From: Candidatus Poribacteria bacterium
GTDB taxonomy: Bacteria; Poribacteria; WGA-4E; WGA-3G
Reading direction: 5' to 3'
DNA length: 64,000 nucleotides
NCBI GenBank assembly: GCA_965232545.1
Contig: OZ246979.1
Coordinates: forward strand, 4,002,481-4,066,480
The position numbers and the translations under genes were made by a program. The notes beneath the pieces were generated by a model that saw nothing but the letters and a program-made list of their open reading frames with translations, did not search any database and had not been told where the DNA came from. Shown one piece after another: positions 2,593 to 58,094 of the stretch (position 1 is its first letter; each line of letters opens with the position of its first letter).

Positions 2593-2658
2593 GATGCTCC
2601 TTATATGTTTACACGAAGTGGCGCGCGGATGATTATCCCTACTGATAACATTCTTCAA

Positions 2659-3105
2659 GGGAATTGTCGGTTTTGGAATCCCAATCCTTTAGGTTTGGGA
2701 GGAAAAACCGCCCTCTTGGAAAGGACCAAAGCGTTCATTTTTCCCTTGACACAAAGTCTTTGTTATGCTACAATGTTCCTTGTAGTGTAAGGTTGCAAGT
2801 TATGCTGCTGTTCGCTATCCCCGTGTGCGACTTGTGTAAAGCTACAGCACTATACGGAAAAGAAACAGACAACGCTGCTGGAGGACAACTTGAGTGTATC
2901 GGGAACAGAAATTGCGTAACTGCACGTTCCCAAAATAGCACTCGTATCTTTTTAGGGTGGCTTGCACCCTTCGTGGAGAGCGTCGGGTTACTGACCTCTA
3001 TGAAACGAGAAACAAGAACGAAGCACGAGACACGGGACCTACAAAACGCAAAACAGTTATTGCTTTTTGCTACAAGGACAAGTCTTTAGGCTTGGGTACA
3101 TTGAC
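2659..3105 (+). mobile_element. Non-autonomous IS200/IS605 mini-element (left end + promoter + omega-RNA right end, no tnpB)
   Basis: First ~90 nt nearly identical to the left end at 56555; last ~150 nt similar to 57921-58076; preceded by TCAA, ends TGAC. Confidence 0.9.
2746..2774 (+). promoter_or_regulatory. Sigma70-type promoter inside the mini-element
   Basis: TTGACA-17-TACAAT with extended -10 TG. Confidence 0.7.
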
Positions 3106-25190: not shown

Positions 25191-26381
25191 ATGTTTTTTA
25201 TTTTTTCTCTATCACAAGATTGGCAGTCTATTTTCAAAACCGTTGTTATCGGATTCGTCGTGTTTTGTGTGCTTTTCACGGTATCGGAGCCGGTTGCGGC
25301 CCAAGCACCCGCGGTGGTTTCGATACCCGACGATGGTTTACGACAGGCAGTGCGCGATGCCCTCAATTTGGCGGCAGACGATGTGCTTGAAGCAGATAAA
25401 ATGCGTAGATTAAAAGTTTTAAAGGCCCCAGAGCTGAGTATAAACAAACTCACGGGGTTGGAACATGCCCCGAATTTAGAGGAGTTGGATCTGAGTTGGA
25501 ATGGGATTAGTAACTTTTCGCCGCTTGCGGGTTTGACGAAGCTTAAGAAGTTAAATCTCAGTATTAATGGGATTACTGATATTTCGCCGCTTGCGGGTTT
25601 GACGAAGCTTGAGGAGTTAGATCTCAATCTTAATCTGGTTAACGACCTAACGCCGCTTGCGGGTTTGACGAAGCTTACATTGTTAGATCTCAGTATTAAT
25701 ACTATTAACGACCTAACGCCGCTTGCGGGTTTGACGAAGCTCAAACACTTGAGGCTGGGGGGGCTTGAGGATCGGATTCAGATTAGTAACATTTCGCCGC
25801 TTGCGGGTCTGACGAGCCTCACAATGTTAGATCTGAATCAGAATAACATCAGTGTTCTCACGCCGCTCCAAAGTTTAACGAAACTCCAGACGTTGGACCT
25901 TTCAAACAATCAAATCAGTGATGTTGGAGCCCTTTCGGGTCTAACTTCGCTCTTATTCTTATACCTTGATGGAAACACCATCACAAATTATCAACCGCTT
26001 CACACGCTCAGGGCGGCGAATCCGGATGTTTGGATCGATATTCTGCCTACCGATACGACAGCTGGGGCACCGCGACAGGCAACATCTCCGCACACAGCAC
26101 TCTTGTCCAACTATCCGAACCCGTTCAATCCAGAGACGTGGATCCCTTATCAGTTGGCAAAGGCAGCAGATGTCACGGTGACGATCTACGATATGCGTGG
26201 GGTCATGGTTCGTGAGTTCGTGTTAGGATATCAACGAGCAGGTGTCTACCGTAGCCGTGTCCGGGCAGTGCACTGGGATGGACACAATGACTTCGGTGAG
26301 AAGGTCGCCAGTGGCGTCTACTTTTACACGCTCACAGCAGGCGAGTTCACAGCAACACGGAAACTCCTGATACGGAAGTGA
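25191..26381 (+). CDS. Internalin-like LRR protein with FlgD/T9SS-like C-terminal domain
   Basis: 22-aa LRRs (near-identical 66-bp units), NYPNPFNPETWIPYQL...TRKLLIRK. Confidence 0.9.
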   Translation: MFFIFSLSQDWQSIFKTVVIGFVVFCVLFTVSEPVAAQAPAVVSIPDDGLRQAVRDALNLAADDVLEADKMRRLKVLKAPELSINKLTGLEHAPNLEELDLSWNGISNFSPLAGLTKLKKLNLSINGITDISPLAGLTKLEELDLNLNLVNDLTPLAGLTKLTLLDLSINTINDLTPLAGLTKLKHLRLGGLEDRIQISNISPLAGLTSLTMLDLNQNNISVLTPLQSLTKLQTLDLSNNQISDVGALSGLTSLLFLYLDGNTITNYQPLHTLRAANPDVWIDILPTDTTAGAPRQATSPHTALLSNYPNPFNPETWIPYQLAKAADVTVTIYDMRGVMVREFVLGYQRAGVYRSRVRAVHWDGHNDFGEKVASGVYFYTLTAGEFTATRKLLIRK

Positions 26382-26407
26382 CACCGGACAGGCAGGGGAT
26401 GGCAGCG

Positions 26408-26519
26408 GATAGACAGCAGCCCCCCTGTCTTATACCAAAATGGGGCGCATTATGCAAATTCAGATTAAAACCAGTTTTTTGTTATACATGTTTATGTTCT
26501 CCCTCTGCCTGAATACCCT
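26408..26519 (+). pseudogene. Truncated duplicate of the upstream region and first codons of gene 28971
   Basis: GATAGACAGC...ATGCAAATTCAGATTAAAACC...CTGAATACCCT matches ~28913-29038. Confidence 0.8.
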
Positions 26520-26529
26520 AAAAATGTTG

Positions 26530-26923
26530 TATAATTATACTTAACACTTTGGACACCGCTTTGACCCCCAACACTCGTTGGGGAGGTGTCCGCTTCGGTC
26601 AAAGGAAGTCAAAAGGTGTTAAGTGTGATACCACTGAAAACATATACTGGGCAGTTCACACATAATTGAGCGAAAGCTTGAATCGGAGCAGAGGTGAAAG
26701 TCTGCGCGTCGTATTGCTGCCCTGCTTTTCAACTTTTCTCTCCTTTTGGAGAGAGGCAGGCGGGGATAGCCATGAAAGTTTCCGCATGATGTGCCTAAAG
26801 GGATTTTTCACCTTTTAGGTAATCGCCTGCGGGTGGAGACACCGTAAGACGGTTGACTCTCTGAGAAAACCGCAAATGTCTATGAAACCGAAGCCCACGC
26901 CTTTAGGCGTTGGGTGCTATCAC
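26530..26923 (+). ncRNA. ORF-less IS200/IS605-derived structured RNA: -10 box, pseudoknot leader, hairpins, omega-RNA-like right end
   Basis: Ends GAAG-CCCACGCC-TTTA-GGCGTTGGG...TCAC; GAAG guide matches a TCAC cleavage site; GCCTGC..GGAGAC..GTAAGAC..TCTATGAAAC scaffold-like words; left end not seen. Confidence 0.6.
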
Positions 26924-26991
26924 AACAGTTCGGTTGGGAAACCGAACCTACCATGGTGTCAAAATAATTATGGATTTTACTATAAAGGCAA

Positions 26992-27031
26992 GTGATACCA
27001 TCCACTGCCTAAAGGCAGGGGCTTCGGTTTC
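26992..27031 (-). mobile_element. Second IS200/IS605 right end, inverted
   Basis: Reverse complement GAAACCGAAGCCCCTGCCTTTAGGCAGTGGATGGTATCAC is similar to 26884-26923. Confidence 0.7.
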
Positions 27032-27152
27032 GGACGCTGCGCTAAAAATCATTCAGAATACAAAATCTGACATCTGACATCGGTGTAAATGAACCCACAG
27101 AATGTCCTGGGGGTGCGTTTGCTTTTGAAAGTCAAAAAAGGACTCACAAATA

Positions 27153-28307
27153 ATGCTCAAATCGTTTATGTCATTTATTCTAAGTTTGTTGGTGATCGGG
27201 GTTATGGGGTGTGATAATGTTAGCAAAGTGCTTACATCGAAACCAGCTTCTACTGTGAAAATCGGATTTCTTGTCGCTGGAGACAGAGCAAATTACCTTA
27301 ACGGTGCGGAGATGGCGGTATCTGAAATAAATGGGCGTGGCGGGTTATTCGGTATGCCTGTTGAATTGATTAGTCATATCAACGTGGATTCGGGACCAGA
27401 AGTCTCTGTTGAAGTTGCCGAGTCTATGATACGCGAAGACAAAGTGATTGCGTTGATTGGTCCCAATCGTTCTTCTCACGCTGTAGAGGTTGGGCGTGTT
27501 GCACAAAAACATCAGATACCGATGATAGCGACAACCGCGACGAACCCGAATGTTACCGGGGCAGGTGAGTTTGTATTTATGGCATCGTTTACCGATAGTT
27601 TTCAAGGGGCAGCGATGGCACGCTTTGCCAAAATGGAGCTGGGTCTGACGACCGCGGCGATTATGACACGCAGAGGGGATCTCTATACCGAAGGTATCTC
27701 CGAATTTTTTATGACACATTTTATTCAGCTGGGTGGGAAAGCCACTCAGGTGTTTTATGAGGCAGGCACAACCGACTTTACGTCATTATTAGAGGAAGTT
27801 GCCGGAGAGAAACCGGATGCGCTGTTCGCGCCAGGGTTTGTTGAAGAACTTCCACTTTTGACGCAGCAAGCCCATGCGATCGGATTGCAAAATAGCATCG
27901 GAACCCCCACAGTGTTCTTAGGTTCAGATTCGTGGGACAATCCGTTGTTGCTAACAACGACAGCGACTGCGATAGAAGGGAGTTATTTCACCGGTCACTT
28001 TTCACCGGATGCCGATGAACCGAACGTGCGCACTTTCGTTGATACATACACCTCTATTTACAGGGATACACCCGTTGGGGGTATCGCTGTCAGTTATGAT
28101 GCGGTTATTTTGCTTGCGCTTGCTGCGGAGAAGGCAGGGAGTTATGAACCAAACGCGCTCCGTCAACAACTCGCTGCAACACAAAATTATACTGGCGTAA
28201 CAAGTATTGCACACTATGATGAAAACCGCCACCCGACAAAAAGTGTCGTTATTTTTACTATCAAGAACGGTAAAAAGCAGTTCTATAAACAAGTAAAAAG
28301 CAGTTGA
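27153..28307 (+). CDS. ABC transporter substrate-binding lipoprotein (LivJ/LivK-like)
   Basis: VMGC lipobox, KIGF, ALIGP..S, DSFQG, YDA, GVT. Confidence 0.9.
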   Translation: MLKSFMSFILSLLVIGVMGCDNVSKVLTSKPASTVKIGFLVAGDRANYLNGAEMAVSEINGRGGLFGMPVELISHINVDSGPEVSVEVAESMIREDKVIALIGPNRSSHAVEVGRVAQKHQIPMIATTATNPNVTGAGEFVFMASFTDSFQGAAMARFAKMELGLTTAAIMTRRGDLYTEGISEFFMTHFIQLGGKATQVFYEAGTTDFTSLLEEVAGEKPDALFAPGFVEELPLLTQQAHAIGLQNSIGTPTVFLGSDSWDNPLLLTTTATAIEGSYFTGHFSPDADEPNVRTFVDTYTSIYRDTPVGGIAVSYDAVILLALAAEKAGSYEPNALRQQLAATQNYTGVTSIAHYDENRHPTKSVVIFTIKNGKKQFYKQVKSS

Positions 28308-28562: not shown

Positions 28563-28697
28563 CAGACGACACAAGGGGCTTCTGGGGGAAATCTGTTCCA
28601 TTCCACATGATACATTCATCAGGTTTCCCTCGCCTTATTTTTCTGCGGGTTTGCTATACCGCTTTGTCCGCTTGCCACCGTTTTACAGAAGGTGTTT

Positions 28698-28815
28698 ATG
28701 CCCTCCCCAATACTCATTATCGAAAGCCGTCTGGGGTCAACGGATTGTTCGGGATGCCGTATTTTTCGGCGCGGTCGCGCGCTTTTCGCCAAACGGTTGC
28801 GGCAGCCGGAGGACA
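28698..28815 (+). pseudogene. Truncated paralog of the small protein at 37566
   Basis: PILIIES.LGSTDCSGC..FRRGR..FAKR..QPED shared, with synonymous differences. Confidence 0.6.
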
Positions 28816-28970
28816 GCCGGAGAGGCAGAAGCGGCCGGAGGGAAATTACGATCCGAGATCCCAGAATCTGGACGGCAGTCAGAAATCGTGAAGGTAACGT
28901 TCGGTCAAAGCTGATAGACAGCGGACCCCTGTCTTATACCAAAATGTCTTATACCAAAATGGAGCACATT

Positions 28971-31900
28971 ATGCAAATTCAGATTAAAACCCGTTTTTTG
29001 TTATATATGTTTATGTTGTCCTTATGTCTGAATACCCTTTTTCTTGGCAATACGGATGCACAACTCATCACTGAACCCTTTGACTCATCCACCGGTCCCA
29101 CCTATACTTTTGAGAGCATTGATGTCCCCGGTGTAGATTATTTGGAGTTAACCGCGAGTAGCGACTTTGAGGATTACGCAGGGAACACCCGGTCTGCCGA
29201 TGGTCAAAAAATTGTCGGCTTCACACTCATTGACGGCGTTTTTGCGACCTACGATTTCCCCGGCTCACAAAATACCTATTTCTATGCGCTCGGTAATGAT
29301 GGGCGGGCTGCCGGCCACTACGAGGACAGCGAGGGTCTGTATCATGGTGTCGTCTTGAAAGATGGCGAGTTGCGGCAATACGATTTCCCGGGTGCTGTCG
29401 AAACAGAGATATATGGGATGAGTGATGCGACCGGGGTACTGACAGGTAATTTTATTGATGAAGCGGGTGTGCGCCGCGGTTTCTCAGGAGACATTATCGT
29501 TGAAGCCCCCGATGCCTCCGCAACTTATGCTGATTTTGTGAGCGCGGGCCGTATCGTAGGGAGTTACATAGATGCTGAAGGCATCTATCATGCATACATA
29601 CGTACGCAGGATGGCAGGTTTGCGTCTTTTGATCACATAGGATCATCTGACCCAGAGTACCTTTTTATTCACGGCATCAATGACGTTGGTGTTCTCGTCA
29701 TTAGAGCCAAAGCGGTGTTTGATATTCCGCGCACTTATGTCGGTAAATTCACAAGGCTACAGGAATTACAGTTTCCAGGCAGCGTGAGCACAGAAGGTTG
29801 GAATATCAATCAGGACGGCTCCGTTGTCGGACATTACGACGCAGCCGATGGACGCAGAAACGGGTTTATCGCAAGACCCGTAGCGGACACCGGGGCACAC
29901 GACGAAGATGAACCCGTTGTCACACCCGTCGACTCCGACTATACTTTTGTGAATCTTGATATTCCCAGTATAGCGTTCTTAGAGTTGACGGCGAGTTCCG
30001 ACTTCAACTATACATTTGAGAGCATTGACGTTCCGGGTGTAGATTTTTTAGAGGTGACATCGAGTGACGATTTTGAAAATTACGCTGGGAGCACCCGAAA
30101 CCCCGAGGGCGAAAATATAGTCGGCTTTACGCGCATTGATGGCGTTTTTACGACATACCATTTCCCCGGCGCAAAGAACACTTATTTCTATGCGTTGGGG
30201 AATACAGGCATCGCTGCCGGACACTACGAGGACAGCAACGGTCTGCACCACGGTGTCATCTTGGAAGACGGCGAGTTACGGGAATATAATTTTCCGGGTG
30301 CCGTCGAAACGTTCATACACGGCTTTTCTGATGCGACCGGGGCATTGACCGGGAATTATATAGATGCTTCGGGCGTGCGTCGCGGATTCTCAGGGGACAT
30401 CATCATTGAGATTCCCGGGGCATCTGAGACCTACGCAGATTTTGTCAGCGCGTCAGGGAGCGTCGTGGGTAGCTATGTAGATGCTGATGGGATATATCAC
30501 ATGTACATACTTTTCCCAGGCAGGATTACATCTCTCAACTTTCCACACGCAGAAAATATAGAATACCTTTTTGCGCACGGTGTTAATCAAGCATTAATTT
30601 ACGTTGTTCGCGTCAAACGGGTAGATGATGTGCCACGTACTTATGTCGGTGGGGTCCACGGTCTACATGAGTTTCAGTTCCCCGGGAGCGTCAGCACGGA
30701 GGGCTGGAATATTAATGAGGATGGTTCTGTCGTTGGGTACTATGACACAGCGGATGGACGCAGACACGGCTTTATCGCCAAACCCGCAGCGGACACCGCT
30801 GCACACGTCAGCGGTGCCCCCGTTGACGGATCCCTCACCGGTGCCGCCTATACATTTGAGAGTATTGACGTTCCCGGCGTAGATTTTTTAGAGGTGACGG
30901 CGAGTTCCGACTTTGAGGATTACGCTGGCTACATACGCAGTGCTGATGGTGAGAATAAAGTCGGCTTTACGCGCATTGATGGCGTTTTTACGACACACCA
31001 TTTCCCCGGCGCAAAGAACACTTATTTCTATGCATTGGGGAACAATGGCGTAGCTGCGGGACACTACGAGGATAGTGAGGGGCTCCACCATGGTGTCATC
31101 TTAGAAGATGGCGAGTTGCGACAATACGATTTTCCGGGTGCCGTCGAAACGTTCATACATGGCATTTCTGATGCAACCGGGGCATTGACGGGTAATTATA
31201 TAGATGCTTCAGGCGTGCGTCGCGGATTTTCAGGGGACATCATCGTTGAGTTCCCTGGAGCAGCGGAAACGTATGCCGATTTTGTCAATGAGCACGGCAG
31301 TATCGTGGGCAGCTACGTAGATGCTGATGGGAGATATGAGGCATACGTGCGGACCCCGGATGAAAGGTTTCTGTCTTTAGACTATACAAACAGAGCAGAC
31401 CTACACTTTACAGACACACCCGAGTTGGAATACATTTTTCTGCACGGTATCAGCGATGTTGGTGTTATCGTGGCGCGTTCCAAAGCGGTGGGTGATGTGT
31501 CGCGCACATACGTCGGCGGTCCCGAAGGCTTACATGAATTGCGGTTCCCGGGGAGCGTTTCCACGGAGGGTTGGAATATTAATCAGGATGGCTCTGTCGT
31601 CGGGCACTATGATTCACCCGACGGACGTAGACACGGGTTCATTGCCAGACCTGTTCCCCAGGCAGAGAGCGATCATTTTGGCAACTTCTACACGGTCACG
31701 CTCTCTAAAGGTTTGAACATGCTCTCCGTGCCGTTGGCACCCCCAAAACCGATGACTGCCAAGTCACTCGTCGCTATGACAGGGGCGACAACTATCATCA
31801 TGTTTGACGCGCCACACCAAAAATTCGTTGCGTGGACACCAGACGCACCCAATGATGGTTTCTCAATTGAAGGTGGACAAGGCTATATCATCAATGTTCC

Positions 31901-32591
31901 AGCAACCCGCAACTTTGCATTCGTCGGCGCACCGTGGACAGATCCAACCGAAGGGGCTGCTGCAGCACCCTCCATATCCACACAGATGTCCCAAGAAGCG
32001 TGGGCGTTCGTTGTCAGTGGACACTTGGAAGGTAAACCAACGTTCGATGACCACCAGGTAATCGTTCGTAACCTGAGAACAAACACCGTGATAACTGTTC
32101 CAGTACAAGGGGATTATTTCGCTGCCGCAACTGCCGACCTAACGCGGCGGAGCGTCGTCGAAGTCGGAGACGTGATTGAATTACGCCTCATCGGTCCCAA
32201 TGGAAATGCTGAGTTACAACCCCTCAGTTTCAAAGTGACCCCTGAGCACCTTGCCAACGCTGTTCTGTCTGTTAAACTTGATGACATCGGTCAACCGACG
32301 CAGGATCTCCTGCTGCAGAACTATCCGAACCCGTTCAACCCGGAGACATGGATTCCTTATCAACTTTCCGAAGATACTTCTGTATCGATATCCATTTACG
32401 ATACAACGGGTCAGTTGGTTCGCACGCTTTCACTCGGTTTTCAATCCGCGGGCTTCTATAATAGTCAGGGGCGTGCGGCGTATTGGGATGGACGCAATGC
32501 CCTCGGCGAACGCGTTGCGAGTGGTATCTATTTTTACCAGTTGACGACGCCGTCTTTCCAGCAGACACGGCGGCTCGTCATTGTAAAGTAG
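28971..32591 (+). CDS. Secreted protein with three ~280-aa beta-propeller-like repeats and FlgD/T9SS-like CTD
   Basis: GGAG RBS, signal peptide, YTFESIDVPG...RHGFIARP units, NYPNPFNPETW. Confidence 0.9.
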   Translation: MQIQIKTRFLLYMFMLSLCLNTLFLGNTDAQLITEPFDSSTGPTYTFESIDVPGVDYLELTASSDFEDYAGNTRSADGQKIVGFTLIDGVFATYDFPGSQNTYFYALGNDGRAAGHYEDSEGLYHGVVLKDGELRQYDFPGAVETEIYGMSDATGVLTGNFIDEAGVRRGFSGDIIVEAPDASATYADFVSAGRIVGSYIDAEGIYHAYIRTQDGRFASFDHIGSSDPEYLFIHGINDVGVLVIRAKAVFDIPRTYVGKFTRLQELQFPGSVSTEGWNINQDGSVVGHYDAADGRRNGFIARPVADTGAHDEDEPVVTPVDSDYTFVNLDIPSIAFLELTASSDFNYTFESIDVPGVDFLEVTSSDDFENYAGSTRNPEGENIVGFTRIDGVFTTYHFPGAKNTYFYALGNTGIAAGHYEDSNGLHHGVILEDGELREYNFPGAVETFIHGFSDATGALTGNYIDASGVRRGFSGDIIIEIPGASETYADFVSASGSVVGSYVDADGIYHMYILFPGRITSLNFPHAENIEYLFAHGVNQALIYVVRVKRVDDVPRTYVGGVHGLHEFQFPGSVSTEGWNINEDGSVVGYYDTADGRRHGFIAKPAADTAAHVSGAPVDGSLTGAAYTFESIDVPGVDFLEVTASSDFEDYAGYIRSADGENKVGFTRIDGVFTTHHFPGAKNTYFYALGNNGVAAGHYEDSEGLHHGVILEDGELRQYDFPGAVETFIHGISDATGALTGNYIDASGVRRGFSGDIIVEFPGAAETYADFVNEHGSIVGSYVDADGRYEAYVRTPDERFLSLDYTNRADLHFTDTPELEYIFLHGISDVGVIVARSKAVGDVSRTYVGGPEGLHELRFPGSVSTEGWNINQDGSVVGHYDSPDGRRHGFIARPVPQAESDHFGNFYTVTLSKGLNMLSVPLAPPKPMTAKSLVAMTGATTIIMFDAPHQKFVAWTPDAPNDGFSIEGGQGYIINVPATRNFAFVGAPWTDPTEGAAAAPSISTQMSQEAWAFVVSGHLEGKPTFDDHQVIVRNLRTNTVITVPVQGDYFAAATADLTRRSVVEVGDVIELRLIGPNGNAELQPLSFKVTPEHLANAVLSVKLDDIGQPTQDLLLQNYPNPFNPETWIPYQLSEDTSVSISIYDTTGQLVRTLSLGFQSAGFYNSQGRAAYWDGRNALGERVASGIYFYQLTTPSFQQTRRLVIVK

Positions 32592-32734
32592 ACTCCATCC
32601 GTATAAACCTACAGGATCCTCGCTTTTACCGTATTGTTGAACGCAAATTTGCGATGCTTCAACAGCATCTGTCATCTGTCAAGATAGGTATCTGAAAGAT
32701 TGTTTCTATTTTCTTTTCATTCTTTTGATAAATA

Positions 32735-32920
32735 TAGGGCTTACGTATGCGGCTCTTTTGTAGCATGATGCACGTCGCATGAATCAACGGTATGAATGCC
32801 GTGTGGCATTCACCGGGGCGAATACGCCGCAAAACTGTTAGTTTGTGCCACAGACCGCCTGCGTTTTTTATCCGCTCCCTTTCTCATGGCGCGGGGGTGA
32901 TCAAAATTGCGTAAGTCCTG
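32735..32920. mobile_element. MITE family B (AGG[AG]CTTACG...TGCGTAAGTCCTG)
   Basis: Terminal inverted repeats; partial relative at 59867. Confidence 0.7.
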
Positions 32921-32945
32921 AAATACTTTAAATGAGGGTTTCGTT

Positions 32946-35900
32946 ATGCAAACTCAGATTAAAACCAGATTTTTATTTTACACATTTACGTTGTTCGTAT
33001 GCTTTAGTTCCTTTTTCCTAATTAACACACCCGCACAAGTTATCGAATCCGCCAGCGACAACTATACCTTTGAGACGATCGACGTTCCGGATGTAGATTT
33101 TTTAGCGGTGACGGCGAGTAGCGACTTTGAGGATTACGCCGGTTATACGAAAAGTGCTGATGGTGAAAAAGATGTCGGCTTTACACTCATTGATGGTGTT
33201 TTTACGACCTACGATTTCCCCGACTCGCAGAACACCTATTTCTATGCCCTCGGTAATAATGGGAACGCCGCTGGACACTATCAAGACAGCGAAGGGCTCT
33301 ACCACGGTGTCGTCTTAGAAAATGGCGAGTTGCGACAATACGATTTTCCGGATGCTGTTCAAACGGAGATATACGGGATTAGCGATGTGACGGGGGCATT
33401 GACGGGTGATTTTATAGATGTTACCGGGGTTCGCCGTGGCTTCTCAGGAGACACAGTCGTTGAAGTCCCTGGAGCGTTAGCAACGTATGCCGCTTTTGCA
33501 ACCACATCAGGAGCCGTTGTGGGTAGCTACATAGACGCGGACGGTTTATATCATTCATACGTGCACGCTCCGGACGGCAGGTTTATATTTGGCGATGTTT
33601 TACCAGCATCGAATCTGGAGTACATTTTTACGCATGGTGTCAACGATATCGGTGTTATCGTTGCACACGTCAAAATCGTGGGTGATGTCCCGCGCACCTA
33701 TGTCGGTAGACCCGGACAACTACACGAATTACAGGTTCCGGGTAGCGTTAGCACGGAGGGGTGGAATATCAATCGGGACGGCTATGTCGTCGGACACTAT
33801 GACTCTCCCGATGGACATAGATACGGATTTATCGCCAGACCCACAGAAGATACGGCTGCACAAGTCGACACGCAACCCGTCACTCCATCTGCCAGTGCCG
33901 ACTATGCGTTTGAAAGTATTGACGTTCCCGGTGTAGATTTCTTAGAGTTAACTGCGAGTAGCGACTTTGACGATTACGCCGGTAATACCCTGAGTGCTGA
34001 TGGTAAAAAAATCGTCGGCTTTACGCTCATTGATGGCGTTTTTACGACCTACGATTTCCCGGGGGCAAAGAATACCTATTTCTATGCGCTGGGTAACAAT
34101 GGACAGGCTGCCGGACACTACGAGGATAGCGAAGGGCTCTACCACGGTGTCGTCTTAGAAAATGGCGAGTTGCGGCAATACGATTTCCCGGGTGCCGTCC
34201 AAACGGAGATATACGGTATTTCCGATGCGACGGGTGCCCTGACGGGTAATTTTATAGACGCTCCCGGGGTTCGTCATGGCTTCTCAGGAGACACGATCGT
34301 TGAAGTCCCTGGAGCGTTAGCAACGTATGCCGATTTTGTGAGCGGGTCAGGGACCGTCGTGGGTAGCTACATAGACAGTGACGGTCTATATCACGCGTAC
34401 GGACGCCTCCCGGACGGCAGGTTTATATTTGGCGATGTTTTACCAGCATCGAATCTGGAGTACATTTTTACGCATGGTGTCAACGATATCGGTGTTATCG
34501 TTACCCGAGTCAAAGCGGTGGGTGATGTCCCGCGCACTTATGTCGGTAAATTCGGGCAACCACACGAATTACAGGTTCCGGGTAGCGTTAGCACGGAGGG
34601 GTGGAATATTAATCAGGATGGTTCTGTCGTCGGACACTATGACTCAGTTGATGGGCGAAGGCACGGTTTCATCGCCAGACCCACTGCGGAAACTGCTGCG
34701 CCAGTTGAGGATCCATCTTTGGTCTCATCCGTCAGTGACAACTATACTTTTGAGACGATAGACATCCCAGGCGTAGGTTTTTTAGCGTTGACGGCGAGTA
34801 GCGACTTTGAAGATTACGCCGGCTACACGAAAAGTGCCGATGGTGAAAAAGACGTCGCCTTTACGCTCATTGATGGCGTTTTTATGACCTACGATTTCCC
34901 CGGCTCACAGAACACCTATTTCTATGCCCTCGGTAATAATGGGAACGCCGCTGGACACTACCAAGACAGCGACGGGCTTTACCATGGTGTCATCTTAGAA
35001 AATGGTGAGTTGCGGCAATACGATTTCCCGGGTGCCGTCCAAACGGAGATATTTGGTATTTCTGATGCGACCAGGGCACTGACAGGGAATTTTATAGACG
35101 CTTCTGGCGTGCGCCGTGGATTCTCAGGGGACACAATCATTGAAGTTCCCGAGGCATTGGCAACATACAGCGATTTTGTGAACGCGAGCGGCGGTTTGGT
35201 CGGCAGCTACATAGATGCCGAAGGGATATATCATCCTTATGTCCGTACCCCGAATGGCGATTTTATACCTTTTACATTTTTAGACCCCCCCGATCTGGAA
35301 TACTTTTTTGTCCACGGTGTTAACGACGCAGGGTTTATCGTTGCCCGGAGCAAAATTATAGGTGATGTACCGCGCACCTTTATCGGCGCATTCCGTGAAG
35401 AATACCAGGAATTGCAGGTTCCGGGTAGCGTTAGCACGGAGGGGTGGAATGTGAATCAGGACGGTTCTATCGTCGGATACTATGACTCAGCGGATGGACG
35501 CAGACACGGATTTATCGCCAGACCTGTCGCAGAAGTCAGTGATGAATCCGTTGTCACCCCCACCATCTCCCAGTATACTTTTGAGAATATAGATGTTCCG
35601 GGTGTGGACTTCTTAGCGTTGACAGCGAGTAGCGACTTTGAGGATTACGCCGGCTACACGAAAAGTCCCGATGGTCAAAAAGATGTTGCCTTTACGCTCA
35701 TTGATGGCGTTTTTATGACCTACGATTTCCCCGGCTCACAGAACACCTATTTCTATGCCCTCGGTAACAATGGGAACGCCGCGGGCCACTACCAAGATAG
35801 CGAGGGGTTATACCACGGTGTCATCTTAGAAAATGGTGAGTTGCGGCAATACGATTTCCCGGGTGCCGTTGAAACCCAAATCTTCGGTATCAGTGATGCA

Positions 35901-37304
35901 ACCGGGGCACTGACAGGGAATTGGACAGATGCTTCCGGGGTGCGCCGTGGCTTCTCAGGGGACGAAATCATTGAAGTTCCCGACGCATCGGCAACTTATG
36001 CCAATTTTACGAACGAGATCGGTCTTGTAGTCGGTAGCTACATAGATGCCGACGGCATATTTCATGCTTATGTGCGGCCCCCGAATGGCATATTTTTACC
36101 TTTTGACCTACCGAACCCAGCTGAGTTGGAATACATTTTTGTCCATCACATGAGTGAAAAATTGACTGCCATTGCCGGAGCCAAACGGGTCGGTGATGTC
36201 CCACGCACCGTTATCGGCACACTCGAGGGGGGGATATATGATTTTCAGTTTCCGGGCAGCGTCAGCACAGAAGGTTGGAATGTGAATCAGGACGGCTCTG
36301 TCGTCGGACACTATGACTCATCCGATGGACGCAGACACGGATTTATCGCAAGACCCGCCAACAAGGTGAGAAGCGATTATTTTGGAAATGTTTACGATGT
36401 CACGCTGTCTAAAGGTTTAAACATGCTATCTGTGCCTTTGGCTCCCCCCAAACCGATGACAGCAAAATCACTCGTTGCGATGACAGGGGCAACAACCATC
36501 GTCGCACTCGATGCCGAAAACCAGCGGTTCGTCGCATGGACACCCGGCGCACCCGACGACGGTTTTCCAATTGAAGGTGGCAAAGGATATATCGTCAATG
36601 TCCGTGAAACTCGAAACTTTGCTTTCGTCGGATCACGATGGACAAACCAAACGGAGAAGACCGCTGCAGCACCATCTGCCATATCCACGGGCAGGTCCCA
36701 GCAACAGGCAGCGTGGGCGTTTGTTGTCAGTGGACACTTGGAAGGTAAACCTGATTTTGATGGCTACCAGGTAAGCGTCCGTAACCTGAGAACAAATAGC
36801 ACGATAACCGCCTCCGTTCAAGAGGATTACTTCGCGGCTGCAACCGCCGACTTGGCGCGTCGAAGCGTCGTTCAAGTTGGAGACGTGATTGAATTACGCG
36901 TCATCGGTCCGAATGGAAATGCTGAACTACAAACCCTCAGTTTCAAAGTGACCCCTGAGCACCTTGCCAACGCTGTTCTGTCTGTTAGACTTGATGGCAT
37001 CGGTCAACCTGAGCAGAATCTCTTGTTGCAGAACTATCCGAATCCGTTTAACCCGGAGACATGGATTCCCTATCAACTCTCCGAAGATAGTCAAGCATCG
37101 ATATCCATTTATGATACAACAGGTAAGGTGATTCGGACGCTTTCGCTGGGCTTCCAATCCGCAGGCTTCTATAATAGTCGGGGGCGTGCGGCGTATTGGG
37201 ATGGGCGTAATGCCCTCGGGGAACGCGTTGCGAGTGGTATCTACTTTTACCAGTTGACGACACCCTCCTTCCAGCAGACACGGCGACTCGTTATTGTAAA
37301 ATAG
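32946..37304 (+). CDS. Tandem paralog with four ~280-aa repeats and FlgD/T9SS-like CTD
   Basis: Same architecture as 28971..32591. Confidence 0.92.
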   Translation: MQTQIKTRFLFYTFTLFVCFSSFFLINTPAQVIESASDNYTFETIDVPDVDFLAVTASSDFEDYAGYTKSADGEKDVGFTLIDGVFTTYDFPDSQNTYFYALGNNGNAAGHYQDSEGLYHGVVLENGELRQYDFPDAVQTEIYGISDVTGALTGDFIDVTGVRRGFSGDTVVEVPGALATYAAFATTSGAVVGSYIDADGLYHSYVHAPDGRFIFGDVLPASNLEYIFTHGVNDIGVIVAHVKIVGDVPRTYVGRPGQLHELQVPGSVSTEGWNINRDGYVVGHYDSPDGHRYGFIARPTEDTAAQVDTQPVTPSASADYAFESIDVPGVDFLELTASSDFDDYAGNTLSADGKKIVGFTLIDGVFTTYDFPGAKNTYFYALGNNGQAAGHYEDSEGLYHGVVLENGELRQYDFPGAVQTEIYGISDATGALTGNFIDAPGVRHGFSGDTIVEVPGALATYADFVSGSGTVVGSYIDSDGLYHAYGRLPDGRFIFGDVLPASNLEYIFTHGVNDIGVIVTRVKAVGDVPRTYVGKFGQPHELQVPGSVSTEGWNINQDGSVVGHYDSVDGRRHGFIARPTAETAAPVEDPSLVSSVSDNYTFETIDIPGVGFLALTASSDFEDYAGYTKSADGEKDVAFTLIDGVFMTYDFPGSQNTYFYALGNNGNAAGHYQDSDGLYHGVILENGELRQYDFPGAVQTEIFGISDATRALTGNFIDASGVRRGFSGDTIIEVPEALATYSDFVNASGGLVGSYIDAEGIYHPYVRTPNGDFIPFTFLDPPDLEYFFVHGVNDAGFIVARSKIIGDVPRTFIGAFREEYQELQVPGSVSTEGWNVNQDGSIVGYYDSADGRRHGFIARPVAEVSDESVVTPTISQYTFENIDVPGVDFLALTASSDFEDYAGYTKSPDGQKDVAFTLIDGVFMTYDFPGSQNTYFYALGNNGNAAGHYQDSEGLYHGVILENGELRQYDFPGAVETQIFGISDATGALTGNWTDASGVRRGFSGDEIIEVPDASATYANFTNEIGLVVGSYIDADGIFHAYVRPPNGIFLPFDLPNPAELEYIFVHHMSEKLTAIAGAKRVGDVPRTVIGTLEGGIYDFQFPGSVSTEGWNVNQDGSVVGHYDSSDGRRHGFIARPANKVRSDYFGNVYDVTLSKGLNMLSVPLAPPKPMTAKSLVAMTGATTIVALDAENQRFVAWTPGAPDDGFPIEGGKGYIVNVRETRNFAFVGSRWTNQTEKTAAAPSAISTGRSQQQAAWAFVVSGHLEGKPDFDGYQVSVRNLRTNSTITASVQEDYFAAATADLARRSVVQVGDVIELRVIGPNGNAELQTLSFKVTPEHLANAVLSVRLDGIGQPEQNLLLQNYPNPFNPETWIPYQLSEDSQASISIYDTTGKVIRTLSLGFQSAGFYNSRGRAAYWDGRNALGERVASGIYFYQLTTPSFQQTRRLVIVK

Positions 37305-56441: not shown

Positions 56442-56512
56442 ATATGGTCTTACGTGATTTAACGAATGTTTTTTCTAAGCGTTCCATATTTTCCTTTCTG
56501 CTAATTCTCTGC

Positions 56513-56541
56513 TTGACAGCTATCCAAGAATTTGCTACAAT
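56513..56541 (+). promoter_or_regulatory. Sigma70 promoter, probably the native promoter of gene 58095
   Basis: TTGACA-17-TACAAT just before the IS insertion site. Confidence 0.6.
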
Positions 56542-56675
56542 TGACATAAATCAAGGGAATTGTCAGTTTTGGAATCCCAATCCTTTAGGTTTGGGAGGAA
56601 AAACCGCCCTCTTGGAAAGGACCAAAGCGTTGATTTTTTCCTTGACACTGGGTCCGAAATTGTAGTATAATGAAA

Positions 56676-56757
56676 GTATCAGGTTGGCAGACATAATCAG
56701 CGTTACCGCTTGGTAACGTGTCTGCCTCCCACTGATTAGGGGATAAATACCTGATAC
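56676..56757 (+). ncRNA. Pseudoknotted 5' leader RNA of tnpB
   Basis: Four helices plus a 7-bp loop-loop pairing, directly after TTGACA-18-TATAAT (56642-56671). Confidence 0.65.
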
Positions 56758-56767
56758 CTGATAGTCC

Positions 56768-58060
56768 ATGAGATTAACATTTATATATCCTATGTATCCG
56801 ACACAGGCAGAAGAAAGAATATTAGAAAAGTGGTTGGCACACCTTTGCGACCTTCAGAACTCCGCTCGCCACGATAGACTCGTTGCGTCCGAGACGGAAG
56901 GCGTTTTTGTGTCGCTCTCTGACCAGCAGACCCTTCTCACCGCAGCGCGTGAGAAATATGATGACTTCCGCGAAGTTCCCCAAGATTTTCAGAACCATGC
57001 GCTCCGCAGAAACGATAAAGCGTTTACGGCTTTCCGTAAACGTTGTAAAGCGGGTGCAGCGAAAAAAGGTTACCCTCGCTATAAAACGCGTGTGCGTTCT
57101 CTGACATGGAGTCTCCGCAAATATACCAAAGTCGTTGGTAAAAAGACGAAAGACACTGAAAAACAGACGATACGCGTTCGTGAGAACCCAATCATAGAAA
57201 CCGAGTTTAGGCACAACCGCTTGAAAGTGCCGAAGTTAGGCGAACTCAAGATACGCATGCATCGCCCGCTTGAAGGTGACCCGAAAGAAGTTACGATCGT
57301 CAAAAAAGCCTCGGGGTGGTATGCACATATCACCTGTGAGTTGCCAGATACTCCAAAGGTTGAACCGACGGACGCTATTGCTGTAGATGTGGGAACGACC
57401 CATTATTTGACAACTTCTGAAGGTGAAACAGAAGATAATCCTCGCTGGTATCGCCAAGCAGAAGGACTTACACGGAAACACTCTAAAGACCTTTCGCGTA
57501 AGAAAAAAGGCAGCCAGCGTTGGCGAAAACAACACCAGAAACTCGCAGTGCATCATGAACGAACTGCCAATAAACGCAAAGACTTTATCGGGAAACTTGT
57601 TTACAAACTCTACCACCACCGAGAAAACAATGTGTTAGTGGCAGAGAACTTGCGCGTATCTAACATGGTAAAGAACAAACACCTTAGCAAGAGCATTGCC
57701 GATGCGTCTTGGGGTATCTTCTTTAAGTGGTGTGCAGACATAGCCGAAAGAGACGGTCTGCACTTCCACCAAGTTGATCCCAAGAATACCTCGCAGACTT
57801 GCTCCTGCTGCGGTAAGAAATCGCAAAAGAAACTTTCTCTTGCGATACGAACCTTTAATTGTCAGTCTTGTGGCACGTCTTTAGACCGAGACCATAACGC
57901 TGCATTAAACATACTCTTACGGGCGGCTTGCGCCCATCGTGGAGAGCGGTGGGTTACCACCCTCACTGAAACGAGAAACAAGAACGAAGCACGAGACGCG
58001 GGCTTTGGGAATGCTAAACAATTGTTGTTTAGCGATCTCTTAACAAGCCCAAGTCTTTAG
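56768..58060 (+). CDS. tnpB: RNA-guided endonuclease TnpB
   Basis: RuvC IAVDVG, VAENL, DRDHNAA intact; CSCC/CQSC zinc finger. Confidence 0.95.
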   Translation: MRLTFIYPMYPTQAEERILEKWLAHLCDLQNSARHDRLVASETEGVFVSLSDQQTLLTAAREKYDDFREVPQDFQNHALRRNDKAFTAFRKRCKAGAAKKGYPRYKTRVRSLTWSLRKYTKVVGKKTKDTEKQTIRVRENPIIETEFRHNRLKVPKLGELKIRMHRPLEGDPKEVTIVKKASGWYAHITCELPDTPKVEPTDAIAVDVGTTHYLTTSEGETEDNPRWYRQAEGLTRKHSKDLSRKKKGSQRWRKQHQKLAVHHERTANKRKDFIGKLVYKLYHHRENNVLVAENLRVSNMVKNKHLSKSIADASWGIFFKWCADIAERDGLHFHQVDPKNTSQTCSCCGKKSQKKLSLAIRTFNCQSCGTSLDRDHNAALNILLRAACAHRGERWVTTLTETRNKNEARDAGFGNAKQLLFSDLLTSPSL

Positions 58061-58094
58061 GCTTGGGTACATTGACCGCGAGGAGGCTTGACAA

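Follow-up and report, generated by a model that had tools for sequence, protein, structure and literature searches.

A conserved, pseudoknotted 5′ leader RNA heading tnpB elements and other genes in Poribacteria

Introduction

TnpB elements, whose nucleases are the ancestors of Cas12 and are under development as genome editors, have to our knowledge had their RNA biology studied almost wholly at the 3′ end, the site of the omega-RNA. For structured RNA at the opposite end of a transposon transcript the closest described systems are the stem-loop in the 5′ untranslated region (UTR) of IS200 tnpA and the fold-back inhibition of IS10, both of which are repressive/protective leaders of transposase mRNAs. 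Here we describe a leader of this general kind that occurs twice in a 64,000-nucleotide stretch of a Candidatus Poribacteria genome (GenBank assembly GCA_965232545.1, contig OZ246979.1, positions 4,002,481 to 4,066,480 of the forward strand; hereafter ‘the window’, numbered from its first letter): once as the entire 5′ UTR of a tnpB gene (the B-type leader), and once at the head of a mini-element that has no open reading frame (ORF; the A-type leader). A first-pass annotation of the window had proposed that these two sequences, although different, fold into one pseudoknotted topology and represent a conserved RNA module of TnpB/omega-RNA transcripts.

In common with the IS200 and IS10 leaders, the Poribacteria leader would sit at the 5′ end of a transposon transcript, where it plausibly gives low, context-independent expression and has an alternative pairing beside the start codon. 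The former are, however, simple hairpins that hide a Shine-Dalgarno (SD) sequence, whereas the latter, 95 nt long, folds into a three-way junction, contains a 7-bp pseudoknot and lacks an SD, and is found on ORF-less elements and host genes too. The omega-RNA (or reRNA) belongs to the same elements, the same strand and probably the same primary transcript, but lies at the tnpB 3′ end with its guide; the leader (56676-56770) precedes the ORF (56768-58060), some 1.2 kb upstream of the omega-RNA, has no guide and is also present before genes other than tnpB. Two Rfam families, IS605-orfB-I (RF03065) and IS605-orfB-II, are likewise structured motifs beside tnpB (orfB) that came from comparative analysis, but neither gives a cmscan match at either leader, even at E ≤ 10.

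Three further systems bear on the fold itself. The E. coli ompA leader is a 5′-terminal stabiliser hairpin, and the 5′ end of the leader described here is likewise predicted to lie in a helix that leaves a few nucleotides unpaired at most (unpaired probability 0.12); stabilisers of the ompA type are nevertheless plain hairpins without a conserved family, whereas this fold is elaborate, conserved and pseudoknotted. The prohead RNA (pRNA) of phage phi29 is a three-way junction, one arm of which has an internal loop while the other ends in a hairpin loop, and the topology of the leader is the same, down to a covarying complementarity between the two loops; this pairing is 4 bp long in pRNA and 7 bp here, there is no sequence or model match between the two, and the setting of the leader is a chromosome and its transposons, without a packaging motor. 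Finally, the purine and tetrahydrofolate (THF) riboswitch aptamers are three-way junctions closed by a P1 helix and held by a distal tertiary clamp; the leader resembles them in its P1-closed junction, its distally tied arms and a P1 whose stability might be sensed by alternative pairing, but differs in having no family match, no junction pocket conserved between A- and B-types and no metabolic gene context.

Results

The leader RNA is about 95 nt long. Its closing helix, P1, encloses a three-way junction, from which one arm extends as P2, an internal loop and the hairpin P3, and the other as the short hairpin P4; seven bases in the P4 loop then pair with the internal loop of the P2/P3 arm to form the pseudoknot (Table 1). 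All of the helices named by the first-pass annotation are present in the leaders at 26541-26635 and 56676-56770, with their coordinates shifted by a few bases, and both leaders do lie directly 3′ of a TATAAT box (26530-26535 and 56666-56671). Its central claim, that a common helix order and a 7-bp loop pairing unite two sequence-divergent leaders, is upheld by the compensatory changes found in relatives. When folded with RNAfold as single RNA strands and compared with 200 dinucleotide shuffles, the two leaders give z-scores of -6.14 (26541-26635) and -6.55 (56676-56770), and no shuffle of the 200 equals either. An insertion of about 25 nt, common to four other leaders of the window genome (L025, L029, L038 and L219), lengthens P3 into a GC-rich hairpin; to judge from these, the length of P3 seems free to vary.

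The first-pass annotation had looked to covariation among relatives as its principal check, and we find it to be strong in all helices and in the pseudoknot. In an alignment of 43 B-type leaders (A1), comprising relatives of the tnpB leader collected by BLAST in the window genome, 95.0% of 1307 cells hold standard pairs, against 81.6% in shuffles, and sliding the 3′ partner by one to three columns leaves only 25-44% of cells paired. Both sides are altered at 21 of 34 pairs, with a covariation score of 0.410 (0.152 in the control) that none of 500 shuffles reaches. The pseudoknot helix of A1 is 96.7% paired, with both sides altered at six of its seven pairs and three to four pair types at each of the four central positions. 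The same architecture fits an alignment of 35 A-type leaders from 21 genomes (A4): 94.4% of cells are paired, 14 of 33 pairs are altered on both sides, and the pseudoknot is 97.4% paired with four of seven pairs so altered; the outer part of P1 is weak here (77.8% paired). Some 51 cells in P1 and P3 of A1 hold G-U pairs, which on the opposite strand would be A-C mismatches, and it is therefore the sense strand that folds. Sense-strand compensatory changes, such as a cis-acting 5′ leader RNA should carry, are thus present in both alignments, and in A1 the sequence is conserved at unpaired positions as well. We conclude that the leader is, almost certainly, a real and conserved structured element.

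Two covariance models were used in searches, R1, which was built from A1 and holds no A-type sequence and no pseudoknot term, and R2, which was built from all 62 sequences. Run over the window with filters off, R1 matches the A-type leader at full length with all helices in register (26541-26635; 47.1 bits, E 3.4e-9), the next-best match being one of 12 bits. It finds 54 sites in the window genome (R2 finds 63), and it also matches all eight A-type copies (25.6-39.4 bits). Because a model built from B-type leaders detects A-type leaders throughout, we take the two to be divergent members of one family and not independent inventions. A third leader, at 2776-2859, had been offered as a poorer example of the same module, but this does not hold up: its fold is unremarkable (z -0.72, equalled by 40 of 200 shuffles) and R1 gives no match to it at E ≤ 10 with filters off. 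The mini-element that it heads (about 2655-3105) has a left end (2655-2752) and a right end in common with the window tnpB element, and its middle part recurs once elsewhere, at G000:C1:1247952-1248085 (95% identical). A divergent form of the leader occurs in another genome (L276:624-716, minus strand; 44 bits), in which every helix has a different sequence and the pseudoknot reads ATTCCAA / TTGGAAT. The family may, on such evidence, be wider than the reach of R1 and R2.

A search of the 64-kb window with cmscan and Rfam 15 (4227 models) returned no match at the gathering threshold, and in E-value mode (E ≤ 10) the regions 26300-27200 and 56500-56900 gave only chance-level matches to unrelated eukaryotic or sRNA models, none of which covers a leader meaningfully. 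The models include IS605-orfB-I/II, HEARO, the group I intron, hammerhead, twister, pistol, hatchet, HDV-like, riboswitches and Phage_pRNA. The failure of the first-pass annotation to place the leader in a named family is thereby confirmed. A literature search, which did not extend to supplements, where motif catalogues often name their motifs, found no description of a structured 5′ tnpB leader. The leader is thus a new RNA family and a well-supported candidate for Rfam, of a kind (the structured 5′ leader of a transposon gene) that is already known.

Across the phylum, R1 matches 80 of 151 sampled genomes, the window genome included: all 56 other genomes of its genus, 72 of 99 in its bacterial family and seven of 26 in a second family of the same order, with none in the 25 genomes sampled from seven further families, so that two of the nine sampled families are represented. 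A-type leaders are found in 21 of 101 genomes of the window's bacterial family. Among public sequences, the 80 nearest relatives of the window TnpB come from assemblies titled Poribacteria, except for one titled ‘uncultured bacterium’, and 79 of these 80 loci have the leader, with its end at the start codon. Scanning public genomes for an exact pattern in which 14 bases were specified proved unspecific (at least 120 stretches, with the model matching none of 80 loci examined). A longer, two-part pattern returned 14 stretches, one of which is a true leader (96 bits) from a record titled Candidatus Poribacteria; this pattern finds only near-consensus B-type leaders, and so has little bearing on divergent forms in other phyla. 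The known range is narrow, being one order of Poribacteria-like bacteria, a lineage of sponge symbionts.

Within this range the leader is locked to a promoter. A sigma-70-type arrangement, TTGACA-N17/18-TATAAT with at least 10 of 12 matches, precedes 60 of the 63 leaders of the window genome; among public tnpB loci it is found at 74 of 79, and among ORF-less A-type loci at 28 of 30. From the end of the -10 box to model position 1 there are 4 nt in 57 of the genomic leaders, the tnpB element of the window among them, and 5 nt in five. The usual spacing of a promoter to its start site would put the start of the transcript at about model positions 1-3, inside P1, and this is where the RNA 5′ end is expected to lie. 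Of 23 sequencing runs considered, 17 are recorded as RNA, and four were compared with the window. Short Logan contigs in two of these metatranscriptome runs cover the leader and tnpB, though they carry no start, strand or level; one contig from an RNA library begins at 56675. From the promoter sequence we infer, rather than observe, transcription at this point. In some copies the -10 region can pair with the conserved tail (GGTATA / TATACC), but this pairing does not covary and was dropped as a promoter feature.

At its other end the leader abuts a start codon. The first 54 genomic sites comprise 53 that end in ATG and 49 that continue into a TnpB-like ORF, and these ORFs fall into at least eight N-terminal types that are 26-100% identical to the window TnpB. 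None has a recognisable SD: GGAG or GAGG is absent from -18 to -4 in all of 53 genomic and 78 public leaders, whereas among 2856 long ORFs of the genome at large 36.7% have this core, its frequency in a control interval being 7.1%. CC stands at -2/-1 in 36 of 53 genomic and 70 of 78 public leaders, in a genome where C is rare directly before start codons.

Between the knot and the start codon lies a second copy of the P1 3′ strand, which is tandemly duplicated in every leader type (for instance CCTGATA-CCTGATA, CGTGATA-CGTGAAA, ACTGGTA-CTGGAAC and GTGTTAA-GTGTGAT). This second copy, just 5′ of the AUG, itself covaries with the P1 5′ strand: the resulting helix, P1alt, is 90.8% paired, and at one of its pairs 23 of 39 sequences are altered on both sides. 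There are, then, two possible registers of P1, of which one frees the segment before the AUG and the other covers it. In nested thermodynamic models, which do not include the pseudoknot, P1 is favoured over P1alt in 32 of 39 sequences with a median gap of 2.7 kcal/mol; the first 5 nt are predicted to be largely paired, with a probability of being unpaired of 0.12 where 150 control 5′ regions give 0.64, and the AUG region to be open (0.66, against 0.51). While the register on the start-codon side thus covaries, the same tandem strand is kept in ORF-less elements.

The pseudoknot behaves differently from the other helices. Its 4-nt core is hypervariable, with 32 strands among 62 leaders of the window genome, and strictly Watson-Crick, with no G-U among 252 pairs; the public set has 30 core variants and three G-U in 258 pairs. 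P1 and P3, unlike this core, are rich in G-U pairs. Of 51 distinct genomic leaders, 45 can form a contiguous pseudoknot of at least 7 bp, as can 35 of 46 leaders in the independent public set; among non-cognate leader/loop combinations the figure is 2.8%. When treated as a nested helix, the pseudoknot pairing is a median of 9.4 kcal/mol worse than P2+P4 in B-type leaders, 33 of 37 of which favour P2+P4, and 1.8 kcal/mol worse in A-type leaders. Since the nested alternative is so costly in the B-type, we take the pairing to be an added contact, made within or between molecules. An equilibrium switch between nested folds in place of a pseudoknot was entertained and, given the same 9.4 kcal/mol penalty, is unlikely for B-type leaders; in the A-type, where the penalty is just 1.8 kcal/mol, such a switch may occur.

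The leader heads at least eight TnpB clades, a family of gene-less mini-elements and a family of small membrane-protein genes. In the window genome three copies stand before genes other than tnpB, with no transposon-end hairpin upstream. Two of these genes encode paralogous small membrane proteins of 113 and 125 amino acids (aa), in which a Pfam search found nothing above the curated cut-off; their leaders differ from one another in P1 and in the pseudoknot, and both have the tandem P1 strand. Of the 101 genomes of the bacterial family, 83 encode members of this protein family, with up to 17 matches per genome, and at seven of 29 of its loci in other genomes an R2 match ends on the start codon (E 1.5e-5 to 0.05, three of them at or below 1e-3). 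For A-type leaders, tnpB follows directly at none of 30 loci in 21 genomes; at one it lies 512 nt downstream, with a B-type leader of its own. Across these 21 genomes, and across genera, the ORF-less A-type elements keep the promoter, the fold and the compensatory changes. The first-pass annotation was accordingly right to see a conserved 5′ module, which covariation supports, and one that is distinct from the 3′ omega-RNA, in that it occupies the interval from the promoter to the tnpB start codon, with the right end of the element as far away as 58076; what falls is its restriction to TnpB, given the non-tnpB genes that the leader also heads.

Between TnpB clades with only about 30% of their residues in common (26-35%), the leaders still have 70-86% nucleotide identity, and the right ends of A-type elements match those of full-length elements bearing B-type leaders. 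Because leaders outlast the divergence of TnpB, and because right ends are shared in this way, the promoter and leader together behave as an exchangeable module. A further candidate, in which P1 would covary with the terminus of the right end (...cattgac in B-type and ...gctatcac in A-type elements), was rejected, as P1 varies independently of both.

The elements that carry the two leaders in the window are set out in Table 1. The A-type mini-element belongs to a family of about 400 nt, with eight copies in the window genome (84-100% identity), whose 3′ 110-170 nt are common to some 20 full-length tnpB elements of that genome. All seven other copies have a TTGACA-like -35 hexamer 17 nt upstream (six exact, one TTGAGA), and six have an end hairpin upstream, with none recognisable in the copy at 2955250. 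The window copy has neither a -35 box nor a left end hairpin, its left side being truncated; an ORF-less element family thus exists, as had been claimed, but the copy from which it was first described is a 5′-truncated relic. It is joined at 26519/26520 to a duplicate of the start of a large repeat-protein gene (26426-26519), the remainder of that gene copy being missing, and a further such duplicate lies at 32920-33013. On the other side, the right end of the mini-element, as far as 26923, and another right end, of which an inverted fragment lies at 26990-27032, together form a long, near-perfect hairpin (26885-27030), which gave a spurious match to MIR2619 (E 6.6e-4).

The window genome as a whole holds some 55 tnpB loci (58 tblastn segments) and eight matches to the Y1 transposase family, of which seven exceed the cut-off. 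Some tnpB matches adjoin a Y1 transposase (tnpA) gene, of which there are four (G000:C1:4930780, 5705505, 3500090 and 4518591), in the two-gene arrangement of the IS605 type, and the tnpB copies beside them are absent from the leader matches. Elsewhere in the window, giant ORFs at 28692-37300 are built from tandem units of about 840 nt (repeat families D1-D6, seven to eight copies), and several genes nearby share a C-terminal module with FlgD_ig / Por_Secre_tail-like matches (family D9).

Table 1. Coordinates of the leaders, their helices, and associated elements; positions are those of the window unless prefixed
Feature	Position	Strand	Details
B-type leader, entire tnpB 5′ UTR	56676-56770	+	R1 111 bits; fold z -6.55; covariation on 43 relatives
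B-type P1	56676-56684 / 56749-56757	+	
B-type P2	56686-56692 / 56720-56726	+	
B-type P3	56701-56707 / 56712-56718	+	
B-type P4	56728-56730 / 56740-56742	+	
B-type pseudoknot	56694-56700 with 56732-56738	+	
B-type second copy of P1 3′ strand	56757-56763	+	AUG 56768-56770
Predicted sigma-70-type promoter of tnpB element	56642-56671	+	-35 TTGACA 56642-56647, 18-nt spacer, -10 TATAAT 56666-56671; 12/12 matches
tnpB gene, 430 aa	56768-58060	+	Pfam OrfB_IS605 1.3e-17, Cas12f1-like_TNB 8.4e-21
tnpB element limits	~56550-58076	+	From BLAST copies
Left-end hairpin of tnpB element	56576-56595	+	cccaatcc-ttta-ggtttggg type; upstream of promoter
Right-end hairpin of tnpB element	58048-58067		Same type as left
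A-type leader	26541-26635	+	R1 47.1 bits, E 3.4e-9; fold z -6.14; covariation on 35 A-type leaders
A-type P1	26540-26547 / 26616-26623	+	
A-type P2	26551-26557 / 26585-26591	+	
A-type P3	26566-26572 / 26577-26583	+	
A-type P4	26592-26596 / 26605-26609	+	
A-type pseudoknot	26559-26565 with 26598-26604	+	
A-type second P1 3′ copy and conserved tail	26622-26633	+	
TATAAT box before A-type leader	26530-26535	+	-35 missing in window copy
ORF-less mini-element copy, 5′-truncated	26520-26923	+	Leader, ~120 nt, omega-RNA-like 3′ part, right-end hairpin
Right-end hairpin of mini-element	26894-26914	+	Same type as the tnpB element hairpins; element end ...gctatcac at 26923
Duplicated 5′ UTR and signal-peptide start of paralogous gene	26426-26519	+	91% identical to 28945-29038; repeat family D16
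Second mini-element leader, not a family member	2776-2859	+	z -0.72; no R1 match
Adjacent paralogous small membrane / coiled-coil genes, each with own leader	G000:C1:1271121-1272227		Loci L230, L232

Discussion

The common denominator of all the contexts in which the leader is found is the 5′ end of a transcript. With this in mind we tentatively propose, while granting that the proposal could well be wrong, that the leader is a 5′-terminal module that caps the end of the transcript and sets SD-independent translation. It would act as RNA, in cis and at the 5′ terminus; with its 5′ end held base-paired in a compact knot, a long transcript would be shielded from 5′-end-dependent decay, that transcript being both the tnpB mRNA and the omega-RNA precursor or, in mini-elements, the omega-RNA precursor alone. 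Where an ORF follows, the equilibrium between P1 and P1alt may then set a low, SD-independent rate of initiation. The leader is probably recognised by, or works through, the machinery of the host and not TnpB; the lock to a promoter, the abutment on the AUG, the copies before ordinary genes and the retention with a promoter in gene-less elements disfavour both a TnpB partner and a role in transposition at the level of DNA. Of the functions that the first-pass annotation had put forward, a 5′ protector or translation control fits best, and a processing ribozyme fits worst.

Several observations weigh against this proposal. A plain hairpin would be enough to protect a 5′ end, so that the pseudoknot, the tandem strand and the UGAUA..CCA tail hint at a more specific role; the proposal leaves the elaborate fold and the hypervariable pseudoknot core unexplained, and ORF-less elements, which offer nothing for translation control to act on, retain both the tandem strand and the tail. 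In six of the 51 genomic leaders, and in 11 of the 46 from the public set, the pseudoknot is broken. One genomic copy, at 1258387, lies about 115 nt upstream of its ORF, the third of the genes other than tnpB, and one RNA-library contig (56581-56687) spans the promoter, for which read-through or carry-over of DNA are possible explanations.

Two near-isoenergetic registers of P1 beside the AUG, at a fixed spacing to a start codon without an SD, are also what might be expected of a riboswitch-like sensor, in which the junction would bind a small molecule or host factor, shift P1 against P1alt and so switch translation of the ORF; the architecture, a closing P1 with two distally tied arms, is moreover that of several aptamers (purine, THF). 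We nonetheless regard such a sensor as unlikely. The junction nucleotides are poorly conserved between A- and B-type leaders, with only a U-rich J1/2 and an A-rich J4/1 in common, which argues against a ligand pocket; the leader is retained where there is no ORF to control, and the genes that would be controlled, for a nuclease and for small membrane proteins, have no common metabolic theme.

The obligatory position 4-5 nt after the -10 box suggests a second possibility, that of a put- or EAR-like antiterminator acting on RNA polymerase or Rho, which would allow the untranslated omega-RNA region to be read through, past the right end and into the guide. Retention in untranslated mini-elements, which need transcription to their far end, and occurrence before unrelated genes would both follow. 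Rfam gives no put or EAR similarity, however, and such a device has no need of the exact abutment on the AUG seen in most copies, and we consider it improbable.

A protein operator, through which TnpB (as one candidate) or another protein would repress translation by feedback, has in its favour that repressive leaders are frequent on selfish nuclease genes and that sequence is conserved at unpaired positions. That leaders so alike serve TnpB clades so divergent, and serve genes other than tnpB too, makes TnpB an unlikely ligand, and a version with a host protein would merge with the 5′-terminal module proposed above; as an explanation in its own right we give the operator little chance.

It is the pseudoknot core that raises the most unusual alternative, namely that loop and internal loop pair between molecules, so that like leaders dimerise or form rings in the manner that the topology of phi29 pRNA brings to mind. 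Covariation is blind to whether a pairing is made in cis or in trans, the costly nested alternative in B-type leaders requires the pairing to be an added contact, and a hypervariable but strictly Watson-Crick core, unlike P1 and P3, would suit such a role. Yet the core TTATCAG is common to leaders of three TnpB clades, which argues against a copy-specific code, a pseudoknot in cis is the simpler reading, and we know of no reason for leader RNAs to pair with one another; we think the idea very unlikely. Were it true, the leader would be a self-assembling RNA with the pseudoknot core as an address code that pairs the transcripts of like elements, which could, for instance, link tnpB mRNA to omega-RNA precursors, or serve to sort dozens of co-resident copies, and would be a new principle for transposon RNAs.

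There is a slim chance that the motif acts as DNA, as a single-stranded structure of the left end for transposition of the IS200/IS605 type: it is part of the left end of elements that transpose as single strands, mini-elements retain it, and the window genome does hold Y1 transposase genes. The end hairpins that can be recognised are, however, other structures, one of them some 100 nt 5′ of the leader and one at the right end; the leader is larger than these, different, and downstream of the promoter. It also occurs before ordinary genes without an end hairpin, is locked to promoter and AUG and has many G-U (in DNA, G-T) pairs, and one mini-element family is without it altogether. A self-cleaving or processing ribozyme, for which a compact pseudoknotted fold on a mobile element might speak, is likewise very unlikely, there being no hammerhead, twister, pistol, hatchet, HDV-like or group I match even at E ≤ 10, few unpaired nucleotides that are invariant across types, and nothing upstream to remove from an RNA predicted to start at P1.

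The covariation of the pseudoknot is unusually clean, and the narrow known range limits the generality of the family. Within that range, the leader is a second RNA module that TnpB elements conserve, located at their 5′ end, and one that is better conserved than the nuclease itself. If it does act as a stabiliser, or sets translation without an SD, then promoter and leader together would form a portable expression cassette; if its task is instead to sense a signal or to assemble in trans, RNA-guided transposons would gain a new layer of control.

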